Below are positions 73 to 4,319 of a stretch of 5,837 nucleotides of DNA, one piece after another. The position numbers and the translations under genes are program-made. The notes under the pieces were generated by a model. The model did not search any database and was not told where the DNA came from. It saw nothing but the letters and a program-made list of their open reading frames with translations. This DNA comes from a virus. Taxonomy: Duplodnaviria > Heunggongvirae > Uroviricota > Caudoviricetes. The stretch's first letter is position 1; every line of letters starts with the position of its first letter. The stretch lies in the IMG/VR virus record IMGVR_UViG_2684622619_000009, one strand, 5' to 3'.

Positions 73-1128
73 ATGGCTAATGCCTGGCTCAGATTGTGGC
101 ATGACATGCCAAATGACCCCAAGTGGCGAACGATTGCCAGGGTATCAGGACAGCCAATCGCAACAGTGATGGCAGTGTATATCCATCTTCTGGTGAGCGC
201 GTCACGAAATGTCACGACATGTCACGGCGTGTCACTACGTGGTCACATTGATGTCACGACGGAAGATTTAGCAAGTGCGCTTGATGTGACGGAAGACGTA
301 ATTGATTCAATTTTGCATGCAATGCAGGGGCGGGTTCTGGATGGTGACCTTATTTCCGGATGGGAAAAACGTCAGGTGCTGAAAGAGGACAATGGTAACG
401 TTTCGCAAACGGCAAAATCCCCGGCAGAGCGCAAGAGAGCGCAGCGGGAGCGGGAAAAGCTGCGGAAACATAATGCTGATTGTCACGATGAGTCACGACG
501 TGTCACGCATCTGTCACGACAAGTCACGACAGATAAAGATACAGATAAAGATACAGATAAAGATACAGATACAGAATTAAACCCCACACATAACGCGCGC
601 GAGAGTATTCCGACCAGTGAGTCGAATGGTGCGCCGTTGCAGACAGCCGAACCTGAATACCTGGACGGCCTGAGCGAACCGATCGGGAAATTTTCGATGA
701 CTACTGTCTGGCAGCCGTCGCCGGATTTTCGACAACGGGCAGCAGTGTGGGGTATGGCTCTGCCTGAGCCGGAATTTACACCTGCTGAGCTTGCCGCATT
801 CCGGGATTACTGGATGGCGGAGGGGAAGGTTTTCACGCAGGTTCAGTGGGAGCAGAAATTTGCCCGCCACGTGCAGCACGTCAGGGCACAGGTAAAACCA
901 GTCAGCAAGGGGGGAAGCCATGCAGCATCAGGTGGCACGGCATCACGGGCAGTTCAGGAAATCCGGGCTGCACGCGAACAGTGGGAACGTGACAACGGAT
1001 TTATCAGCAACGGAAACGGCCTGGAAGCTGTGGGAGCTCATGGGGGAGGTGTATTCGAACCGCTGGACTCAGAAGAACGGGGCCGCACCTTCGAAGCTCT
1101 GGATTGCCCAGATTGGTGCGATGACTGA
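73..1128 (+). CDS. Phage replication initiator (lambda O-like replisome organizer with DnaT-like C-terminal region)
   Basis: Long ORF (track 67..1128); ATG at 73 sits 6 nt after AAGAGG (61-66), so 73 is preferred over GTG 67. Iteron clusters and an AT-rich repeat lie inside the coding sequence as in lambda O/ori. The C-terminal segment (TTVWQPSPDF...FTPAELAAFRDYWMAEGKVF...WEQKF) resembles DnaT-like domains of phage replication proteins, from memory. Followed directly by a P-like gene. Confidence 0.75.
   Translation: MANAWLRLWHDMPNDPKWRTIARVSGQPIATVMAVYIHLLVSASRNVTTCHGVSLRGHIDVTTEDLASALDVTEDVIDSILHAMQGRVLDGDLISGWEKRQVLKEDNGNVSQTAKSPAERKRAQREREKLRKHNADCHDESRRVTHLSRQVTTDKDTDKDTDKDTDTELNPTHNARESIPTSESNGAPLQTAEPEYLDGLSEPIGKFSMTTVWQPSPDFRQRAAVWGMALPEPEFTPAELAAFRDYWMAEGKVFTQVQWEQKFARHVQHVRAQVKPVSKGGSHAASGGTASRAVQEIRAAREQWERDNGFISNGNGLEAVGAHGGGVFEPLDSEERGRTFEALDCPDWCDD
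201..262. repeat. Iteron cluster A: six GTCAC(G)-core repeats phased at ~10-11 bp
   Basis: GTCAC starts at 201, 211, 221, 231, 242 and 253, all in direct orientation at helical-turn spacing; an inverted GTGAC copy follows at 286-290. Located inside the O-like CDS. Confidence 0.6.
482..530. repeat. Iteron cluster B: five GTCACG repeats phased at ~10-11 bp (putative initiator binding sites of the origin)
   Basis: GTCACG at 482, 492, 502, 513 and 523, directly abutting the AT-rich tandem repeat; this iterons-then-AT-rich layout matches lambda-type origins. Confidence 0.6.
531..575. repeat. 12-bp tandem repeat AGATAAAGATAC x3 plus partial copy (AT-rich, putative DNA unwinding element)
   Basis: Perfect copies at 531-542, 543-554 and 555-566, then AGATAC AGA. 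Encodes a (DKDT)n linker in the O-like protein. Confidence 0.7.
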
Positions 1129-1582
1129 ACAGCAAATCCGTCTGGTGTGCCGTCAGTGCATGGACCGCTGCCGGGCGGGTGAAACGTGGCCCCCGGACCT
1201 GGCTGAGTTTGTTGCGCTGATTTCGGAGAGTGGGGCAAATCCATTTGGTCTTACGGTGGATGCCGTGATGGAAGAGTACCGGCGCTGGCGCAATGAATCC
1301 TGGCGATACGACGGGAGTGATAAATACCCGTGGCCACAGCCTGTGCTGTACCACATCTGCCTCGAAATGCGTACCAGAGGGATTGAGCGCCAGATGACGC
1401 AAGGTGAGTTAAAACGACTTGCGGAACGGCAACTGACGAAATGGGCAAAGCATGTTGGTAACGGGATGAGTGTTCCGCCAGTGCGACGACAACTGGAAGG
1501 GGCGAAACACCCGCAAGGGCCAACGCCAATTGAACGGCTGAAACAGGAATACGAACGCCGGAAGGCAGCTGGTTTTATTTGA
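920..1582 (+). CDS. Lambda P-like replication protein (helicase-loader-like)
   Basis: Translation shows motifs I recall from lambda P: ...PPDLAEFVALI..., ...DKYPWPQPVLYHICLEM..., ...TQGELKRLAERQL...VPPVRRQL. ATG 920 is preceded by GGGG(AAG) 5 nt upstream. Alternative starts are ATG 1040 (GGGAG 5 nt upstream) and ATG 1121 (overlapping the O-like stop). The start is uncertain; the stop at 1582 is firm. Confidence 0.6.
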   Translation: MQHQVARHHGQFRKSGLHANSGNVTTDLSATETAWKLWELMGEVYSNRWTQKNGAAPSKLWIAQIGAMTEQQIRLVCRQCMDRCRAGETWPPDLAEFVALISESGANPFGLTVDAVMEEYRRWRNESWRYDGSDKYPWPQPVLYHICLEMRTRGIERQMTQGELKRLAERQLTKWAKHVGNGMSVPPVRRQLEGAKHPQGPTPIERLKQEYERRKAAGFI

Positions 1583-4243: not shown

Positions 4244-4319
4244 NNNNNNNNNNNNNNNNNNNNNNNNNNNNNNNNNNNNNNNNNNNNNNNNNNNNNNNNN
4301 NNNNNNNNNNNNNNNNNNN
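4244..4319. other. Run of 76 N (masked or unresolved sequence) inside the hok locus
   Basis: Directly visible. It interrupts the hok leader and hides the start of the hok reading frame. Confidence 0.99.

Follow-up and report, generated by a model that had tools for sequence, protein, structure and literature searches.

A putative replication origin with two phased iteron arrays inside the initiator gene of a lambdoid prophage

A putative origin within an initiator gene

Positions 201-590 of a 5,837-nucleotide stretch of lambdoid prophage DNA (IMG/VR record IMGVR_UViG_2684622619_000009; the whole stretch is referred to here as the window) likely constitute a replication origin that lies inside the gene of its own initiator and that would operate through two separate arrays of one short repeat. 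We base this reading, which draws on analogy with known phage origins, on the anatomy of the sequence, DNA-level selection on the repeat cores and on an adjoining A+T-rich tract, the observation that the core changes in concert in the two arrays, modular inheritance and the domain content of the encoded protein. An earlier note on this DNA had described the gene as O-like and the region as following the pattern of the lambda ori. The pattern itself stands, in that iterons are followed by an A+T-rich tract within an initiator gene. The product of that gene is analogous to lambda O in function and is not homologous to it.

On the plus strand, GTCAC starts at positions 201, 211, 221, 231, 242 and 253 and again at 482, 492, 502, 513 and 523 (Table 1), in exact agreement with the eleven direct repeats in two clusters at a spacing of about 10-11 bp reported in the earlier note; the interval between the clusters, given there as about 220 bp, measures 219 bp (262 to 482). 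Nine of the eleven cores read GTCACG, the exceptions being those at 231 (GTCACT) and 242 (GTCACA). The window as a whole contains 25 copies of GTCAC versus 11.5 +/- 3.5 in shuffled sequences, a count that none of 200 shuffles attained. Tandem Repeats Finder detects arrays of period 10 at 201-246 and 482-530 together with one of period 12 at 529-575 (97% matches), the latter being the A+T-rich tandem repeat abutting cluster B that had been noticed previously, here with 3.9 copies. This repeat is translated in frame as (DKDT)n, and the GC content of 0.35-0.38 at 511-600 is the lowest within the initiator gene. The iterons are not of the 19-bp lambda type and consist of 6-bp cores one helical turn apart.

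Table 1. Coordinates of the candidate origin and associated features in the window.
Feature	Position	Strand	Basis or remarks
Initiator gene, functional analogue of lambda O	73..1128	+	Open reading frame; RefSeq gives the same coordinates
Iteron cluster A, six direct GTCAC(G) cores	201..262	+	10-11 bp spacing; encodes the loop at residues 43-62
Single inverted core (GTCACA on the minus strand)	286..290	-	33 bp past the final core of cluster A, measured between starts
Iteron cluster B, five direct GTCACG cores	482..530	+	Inter-domain linker, residues 137-153
A+T-rich, purine-rich tract, putative DNA unwinding element	529..590	+	3.9 x ACAGATAAAGAT (529-575) followed by AATTAAAC
Module junction	557..600	+	Repeat end and GAATTAAACCCCACACATAAC (ELNPTHN); from here onward shared with initiators of unrelated N-termini
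DnaT-like DNA-binding domain coding region	691..891	+	Residues 207-273; PF17948, 62.5 bits (cut-off 25)
Lambda-P-like helicase loader gene	1040..1582	+	PF06992, 57.9 bits (cut-off 26)

The inverted core beyond cluster A is kept at an equivalent place (gene nucleotide 193 or 214) in most loci that carry GTCAC-type repeats, and the valine codon that it occupies is GTG in 16 of 16 sequences. Other candidate sites were set aside. A second inverted GTCAC at 344-348 is found in close relatives only and is not clustered, and a plus-strand pair of GTCACA at 2129-2144, 11 bp apart within a DUF1627 gene, comprises two copies only and is neither conserved nor clustered; both are probably due to chance. 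A dimer-binding palindrome, TGTCACGACA, was rejected as a general site, its GAC half being conserved only in E. coli variants.

Selection on the repeats as DNA

Similar DNA at the two sites might be a coincidental consequence of the protein, arising from a conserved loop (SRNVTRGHxDVT) and a linker (CHxESRNVT followed by DKDT repeats) that are maintained for their own sake. The peptides SRNVTRGH.DVT and CH.ESRNVT.DKD are conserved across genera at about 60% overall identity, as would be expected in that case, and the earlier note had raised the possibility of an amino-acid repeat conserved at the protein level with synonymous variation beneath it. A period of 10-11 bp, however, is not divisible by 3, and the same DNA word is therefore read in all three frames, as SR, VT and [GC]H, in both clusters. 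When the codons were resampled synonymously (the window's codon usage, protein kept, 20,000 draws), a mean of 1.97 and a maximum of 8 GTCAC copies were obtained, against the 11 observed. The same procedure applied to 529-590 gave an expected GC content of 0.426 against an observed 0.306, and the fraction of draws at or below the observed value was 0.0004.

We extended this comparison to 20 genes of the GTCAC class with a locus GC content of 0.34-0.63, drawn from Escherichia, Aeromonas, Aquitalea, Entomomonas, Rahnella, Bordetella, Serratia, Pseudomonas, Gilvimarinus, Stenotrophomonas, Acidovorax and Chromobacterium. The normalised codon entropy of 13 conserved codons lying over the cores was 0.099 versus 0.817 for 63 other conserved codons of the same alignment (Mann-Whitney p=2e-8). 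Among the 19 of 20 rows that were informative, the core codons were GTC for valine, GGT for glycine, CAC for histidine and ACG for threonine in 19/19 each and TCA for serine in 18-19/19; conserved leucine, arginine, proline and valine codons outside the cores use three to six codons. Synonymous sites over the cores are thus frozen, not variable, and the repeats are selected as DNA. In E. coli relatives of 85-99% identity, moreover, the GTCACG cores are invariant whereas the spacer bases, the order of spacings (10/11 versus 11/10) and the peptide all vary, so that the segment encoded by cluster B reads SRRVTHLSRQVTT in some and SRICHDMSRRVTT in others over unchanged cores. In the DKD tract, GAT and AAA codons likewise persist in genomes of 60% GC or more, and in the structural model the segments in question form a loop of low confidence and a disordered linker. 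Against this evidence we consider an origin of the repeats in protein-level conservation to be extremely improbable.

Two arrays across a widespread family

A scan of one genome per species yielded 58 related loci, and four distant phage genomes were added to the survey, with a clear layout in two; 57 loci were analysed for layout. The same phased 5-mer occurs in both arrays in 45 of the 57 loci, which span Gamma-, Beta- and Alphaproteobacteria, Acidobacteria and a planctomycete, with array A at gene nucleotides ~130-180 and array B at ~340-450. Successive cores are 10 bp apart in 199 instances and 11 bp apart in 50. The bipartite array, which the earlier note had singled out in this prophage, is indeed present here, yet it is not peculiar to it and is instead a conserved hallmark of a widespread family. 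The absence of repeats from the corresponding position of homologous genes, which the note had said would speak against an origin, is not what we found: the repeats are kept in E. coli relatives and in distant genera.

The core itself differs by lineage and is GTCACG, CGAACGC, GTAACG(C) or GTGACGC, or GCAACGC in Ralstonia phage Firinga, the CGAACGC type being that of many Beta- and Alphaproteobacteria, Acidobacteria and a Gemmataceae genome. Arrays A and B of one gene always carry the same core, and all types share ACG. Motif type does not follow host genus, as GTCACG and CGAACGC both occur in Pseudomonas and GTCACG and GTAACG both occur in Enterobacterales, and this points to a reader encoded by the element. 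In one Sphingomonas sp. locus (L126), the arrays, at gene nucleotides ~120-170 and ~430-460, encode the same 11-residue string, ETTGNAGVTQG, so that a block of ~30 nucleotides is present twice in one frame, which suggests gene conversion or duplication between A and B. No arrays are present in two domain-fusion derivatives from Serratia and Pantoea (L139 and L149) and in a few other loci, and in the most distant homologues (Microcystis phage Mwe-JY25 and cyanophage Cy-LDV1) the array is absent or weak. The two fusion derivatives, in which the N-terminal domain is followed directly by a segment that by eye resembles GIY-YIG and no phased repeats are seen, look like former initiators.

Directly after the last core of array B, nearly all loci that possess this array have a purine-rich tract of the CAGATAAAGA type, the variants of which include CAGATAAAGATA, CAGATACAGATA, CAGATACAGA, CAGATAAAGATAAAGA and homopurine AGAGAAGA, even where GC content is 0.60-0.67. 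Its length is far from constant. The earlier note had proposed that changes in copy number would alter both origin and protein and that they should be looked for among related prophages, and the DKDT count does vary: insertions and deletions in the A+T repeat come in units of 6 or 12 bp, and in the 80 of 87 close relatives captured by a pattern match it comprises three to nine hexamer units. The common allele has three units (65 loci), and the seven units of the window are rare, being shared by 1 of the 87. Such hypervariability, with the window carrying a rare expanded allele and a mosaic junction falling exactly at the repeat, is what would be seen if the 12-bp repeat were a microsatellite prone to slippage, and a site of recombination, within a tolerant linker and had no part in unwinding. 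We think this unlikely, as a CAGATAAAGA, CAGATACAGA or AGAGAAGA tract recurs at this place in nearly every lineage including those of high GC content, none of the captured relatives falls below three units, and the GC content of the tract lies below the codon-resampling expectation.

Within E. coli, the origin region (150-600) was found in 643 of 5,426 complete genomes, in up to four copies per genome, and each of the five O157-type strains inspected carried three copies. The family is also present in phages or prophages of Pseudomonas, Bordetella, Ralstonia and Aeromonas. A database search yielded ~800 homologues. Many database proteins of the family are labelled partial, with contigs ending inside the gene, which is consistent with short-read assemblies breaking at a multi-copy, mosaic, repeat-bearing gene.

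Modular inheritance of domain and arrays

Our sequence comparisons indicate that the N-terminal domain of the initiator and both arrays are inherited as one module that is joined to varied partners. In the window, the partner consists of a DnaT-like domain and a P-like loader; in Evi-type genes it is an Evi-type C-terminus, in Aeromonas phage pAEv1818 a DnaC-like loader, and in a circular 50.9-kb P. aeruginosa phage genome and Ralstonia phage Firinga a DnaB-like helicase. Lambda-type O genes have long been known to exchange the domain together with its iterons at the A+T-rich region, and the module boundary observed here falls at the corresponding place. Matches to phage and E. coli sequences in BLAST searches end at 563/575 or begin at 545-578, within the A+T repeat and the conserved GAATTAAACCCCACACATAAC, and genes with a DUF1376-type N-terminus or with a third type of N-terminus share both this junction and the C-terminal module. 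The number of units within array A also changes by whole repeats, with four or six in E. coli, and a 21-bp in-frame deletion in Evi-type genes removes exactly two array A iterons.

When the N-terminal domain is of another type, the arrays are gone. The E. coli genes L011 and L012 (DUF1376-type) and L013 (third type), all with the same C-terminal module, lack phased arrays of GTCAC and have no more than two stray copies, and a search of DUF1376-type genes (Rac ydaU-like) for iterons found none that were convincing inside the gene. In L013, from E. coli O78 strain 3, five to six copies of CACCCAAAAACGG and CAAAGACACCCAAA repeats lie immediately upstream of the shared junction (1000-1196) and are probably another set of iterons in the corresponding place.

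These patterns bear on whether the repeats might serve a protein other than the initiator, for instance in centromere-like partition, in packaging or in regulation by a repressor or host factor, their location in the initiator gene being incidental. Centromere-like and operator sites, too, typically have short direct repeats in phase. Nevertheless, the arrays go strictly with one type of N-terminal domain and disappear if another takes its place or it is fused elsewhere, the type of motif is independent of the host, downstream partner genes change while the arrays stay, and array B is followed by an unwinding-type A+T tract in nearly all loci. Furthermore, no comparable clusters of cores were found in the remaining 18 kb of the prophage examined. 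We therefore judge a role for another protein to be very unlikely. Set against what is generally asked of iteron origins, the repeats are conserved at the DNA level and are both co-inherited with and specific to their cognate type of initiator.

Domains and predicted fold of the initiator

RefSeq names the product of 73-1128 a 'DnaT-like ssDNA-binding domain-containing protein', and it matches PHROG replication-initiation families at E 4.5e-119 and 5.9e-95, with strong matches to such families in the N-terminal domain. The names given to the family's gene in phage records vary and include 'replication protein O', 'primosomal protein I', 'replisome organiser' and hypothetical protein. From its N-terminus, the protein comprises a winged-helix-like domain (residues 1-~100), a basic helix (~117-134), a disordered linker (~136-170) and the DnaT-like C-terminal domain. 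The NF002770 model of DnaT matches at E 5.8e-27 with 94.5 bits, under its equivalog cut-off of 201, and the protein is accordingly not a DnaT equivalog. Pfam searches with the whole protein and with the N-terminal domain, to E=10, gave no match to Phage_rep_O, the sole match being the C-terminal PF17948. The N-terminal domain has a weak match to TIGR01714 (18.1 bits, cut-off 49.8; E 0.0024) in which residues 5-131 align with positions 1-118 of the 119 in the model, and it matches PHROG 'replisome organizer' families at E 3.2e-7 and 1.2e-4.

An AlphaFold model of residues 1-158 has a mean predicted local distance difference test (pLDDT) score of 70, with 87-94 in the core of the domain, and its elements run in the order of three helices, a loop (46-62), a helix-turn-helix (63-70 and 74-84), a beta wing, the basic helix (117-134) and a disordered tail. 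From the order of secondary structure alone, we assign the N-terminal domain a winged-helix-like fold; a Foldseek search of the model against the PDB returned nothing significant, the best matches, at E >= 0.3, being winged helices of the CRP/CAP and MarR families and one plasmid initiator. In this model, cluster A encodes the loop that joins helix 3 to the helix-turn-helix, where pLDDT is ~62 and falls below 50 at residues 48-52; a 7-residue insertion particular to the window-type protein is also below 50. Cluster B and the DKDT repeat encode the disordered tail, with pLDDT 41-50 in the cluster B segment. Because the arrays are placed in a low-confidence loop and a disordered tail, they fall in what are predicted to be the parts of the protein most tolerant of an imposed sequence.

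The position of cluster A invites the speculation that the loop it encodes itself helps to read the iterons, such that site and reader would occupy the same nucleotides. Within residues 1-105, the only consistent differences between the GTCACG and CGAACGC classes are in the iteron-encoded loop (T48 versus E and H58 versus R), and the helix-turn-helix and wing are essentially alike. The basic helix after the domain does differ between the classes, and specificity could alternatively reside there, or only the shared ACG core might be read. We regard a reading function of the loop as doubtful. If it were correct, a change in array A would alter site and reader together and gene conversion to B would complete a switch in specificity, which would explain why an array is kept inside domain-coding sequence.

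Proposed mechanism and the role of cluster A

By analogy with lambda and SPP1, from which we extrapolate binding, looping, melting and helicase recruitment, we propose that the N-terminal winged-helix-like domain binds the 6-bp GTCACG cores. Since the cores are 10-11 bp apart, the bound proteins would align on one face of the helix and could form short filaments at the six sites of cluster A and the five sites of cluster B. The core of the origin would be cluster B and the adjoining purine-rich A+T tract, located in the inter-domain linker as in lambda, with cluster A, ~220 bp upstream, as an accessory array for cooperative complex formation or control. Bridging or wrapping between A and B would build a larger nucleoprotein complex that helps to melt the A+T tract, after which the DnaT-like C-terminal domain and the downstream P-like protein would bring in the host DnaB. 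Given that the origin sits in a gene of the early operon, transcription is expected to cross it, as it does in lambda.

Several considerations weigh against this proposal. The sequences compared share descent, and the only control of the codon test is the other columns of one alignment. The model of the N-terminal domain has no significant structural match, and the DNA-binding role of this domain is accordingly putative. In the copy of this prophage in E. coli strain 272, the integrase and RecE genes are truncated, the cro-like gene is frameshifted and insertion sequence (IS) elements lie nearby (L002 3509-5286 and 8352-8595); since it thus looks partly decayed, this copy may no longer fire even with its origin intact. 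In the literature that we searched, largely without subscription journals, we found no experiments on binding, melting or origin activity for this family. Finally, three lineages (L128, L133 and L141) have array B but lack array A, from which it follows that array A can be dispensed with and might have a different purpose.

This last point leads to the main alternative, which concerns whether array A is an auxiliary part of the origin or serves autoregulation or copy control, and our computed results fit both. In its strict form, the origin would be cluster B and the A+T tract only, as retained in the three lineages above, and cluster A would be a control element, either an autoregulatory operator or a 'handcuffing' array like P1 incA. 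Protein bound at cluster A, which falls within the 5' third of the initiator gene itself, would obstruct RNA polymerase, and the number of units in this cluster varies, being four or six in E. coli. Second iteron arrays with a purely control role are established in the P1 and F plasmids. On the other hand, in 45 of 57 loci, from several phyla, array A recurs at the same gene position, in the same orientation and with the core of B, an observation that is itself compatible with either role. We view the strict form as possible, if somewhat less than likely, and retain the two-array origin as our working interpretation.

Relation to known origins

Origins located within initiator genes are textbook for lambda, and the candidate origin resembles the lambda ori in several ways. 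It would lie between an origin-binding N-terminal part and a loader-interacting C-terminal part of the initiator (here the linker at residues 137-170), an A+T-rich tract whose strands differ in purine/pyrimidine content comes after its direct repeats, a loader gene of the lambda P family (here PF06992) follows immediately downstream, the N-terminal domain and iterons are swapped between phages as a unit at the A+T-rich region, and the origin would be transcribed from the early rightward operon. The lambda ori lies in O (cited in PMC5509034), and some Stx phages have six iterons rather than four (PMC7466680). Unlike lambda O, however, the initiator of the window has no Phage_rep_O match and a DnaT-like C-terminus, and where lambda has four ~19-bp repeats, each with internal dyad symmetry, in one array, there are here eleven 6-bp cores with weakly conserved flanks in two arrays, one of which is inside the coding region of the DNA-binding domain.

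In SPP1, oriL consists of direct repeats together with an AT-rich DNA unwinding element inside gene 38 and is bound by gp38 (PMC6316719). In the window, direct repeats and an A+T-rich region likewise lie within the gene, downstream of the part that encodes the N-terminal domain. The match of this domain to the phage_rep_org_N family (TIGR01714) runs end to end but is weak and far below cut-off. The low-complexity linker of that family reflects DNA repeats. The present family differs in that its hosts are Proteobacteria and other Gram-negative phyla, not Firmicutes, in its DnaT-like domain and P-like loader partners and in the second array within the domain-coding part; the second site of SPP1, oriR, is ~13 kb away compared with 220 bp here. 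The initiator is at best a remote relative of the replisome-organizer family, and it does not belong to that of lambda O.

P1 (incC and incA) and P4 (ori and crr) also have a short repeat, bound by the initiator, that recurs in two separate arrays, as is proposed here; in plasmids one of them is dispensable or regulatory, and in P4, 8-bp repeats at two loci are bound by one protein. The initiators of these systems are unrelated to ours (a Rep_3-type RepA and the P4 alpha primase-helicase), and their arrays flank the gene or lie kilobases apart whereas both arrays of the window are within coding sequence. A DnaT C-terminal-like domain in a protein at the O position followed by a lambda-P-like gene is shared with DopC/DopE and other DnaT_C/P-like pairs, but DopC, which is chromosomal and domesticated and whose N-terminus is of the HTH_36 type, is reported to be without iteron-like repeats (PMC5509034).

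A literature search on iterons or origins of the family, on ydaU/ydaV-type modules and on replisome organizers returned only lambda-O-type Stx phages, SPP1 and DopCE. The initiator family appears to be uncharacterised, and the two-array layout with 6-bp cores one turn apart is apparently undescribed, with an earlier description possible in the subscription journals that lay largely outside the search. What is gained is a concrete origin map, with cores, a putative unwinding tract and a module boundary, as well as a natural example of DNA-level selection overriding codon choice in genomes of 34-67% GC. The combination of two phased arrays with a CAGATAAAGA tract provides a signature by which origins, and incompatibility or specificity types, may be annotated in prophages. 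As several co-resident O157 prophages share one type of origin and initiator, the question arises of cross-activation or incompatibility upon induction, and cross-activation, whether avoided or exploited, bears on the behaviour of strains that carry Shiga toxin.

Loader overlap, neighbouring genes and prophage context

The loader matches PHROG 109 ('P-like helicase loader') at E 1.5e-62. Its annotated start is 1121, yet in an open reading frame that begins at 920, alignment to the PHROG profile of P-like loaders sets in at residue 18. Across seven homologues, substitutions in 1040-1125 comprise 23 synonymous and 3 nonsynonymous changes in the P frame versus 1 and 24 in the frame of the initiator. 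The loader probably starts at the ATG at 1040 or before and overlaps, in a different frame, the initiator gene's 3' end, of which the last ~29 codons are under no selection as protein. One further profile, PHROG 15931, looks like a fusion of O and P.

The gene order of the window is cro-like, YdaT-like, initiator, lambda-P-like loader, DUF1627, small genes, hok, BOF protein, DUF968 and RusA. Scans of 1-1700 for promoters and terminators gave counts not above those of shuffled sequences, and an Rfam scan of the whole window found no RNA family at threshold, possibly on account of a run of N at the hok region. The first 1,200 bases of the window are 100% identical to the lambdoid prophage of E. 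coli strain 272, and the window is 99% identical to O157:H7 strains. At 4244-4319, 76 N stand in for 159 bases of the otherwise identical strain 272 prophage (L002 13244-13402), and the hidden stretch corresponds to the hok leader (mok/sok region) and the start of hok. As the run of N is shorter than the stretch that it hides, coordinates past the gap are offset by 83 relative to strain 272.

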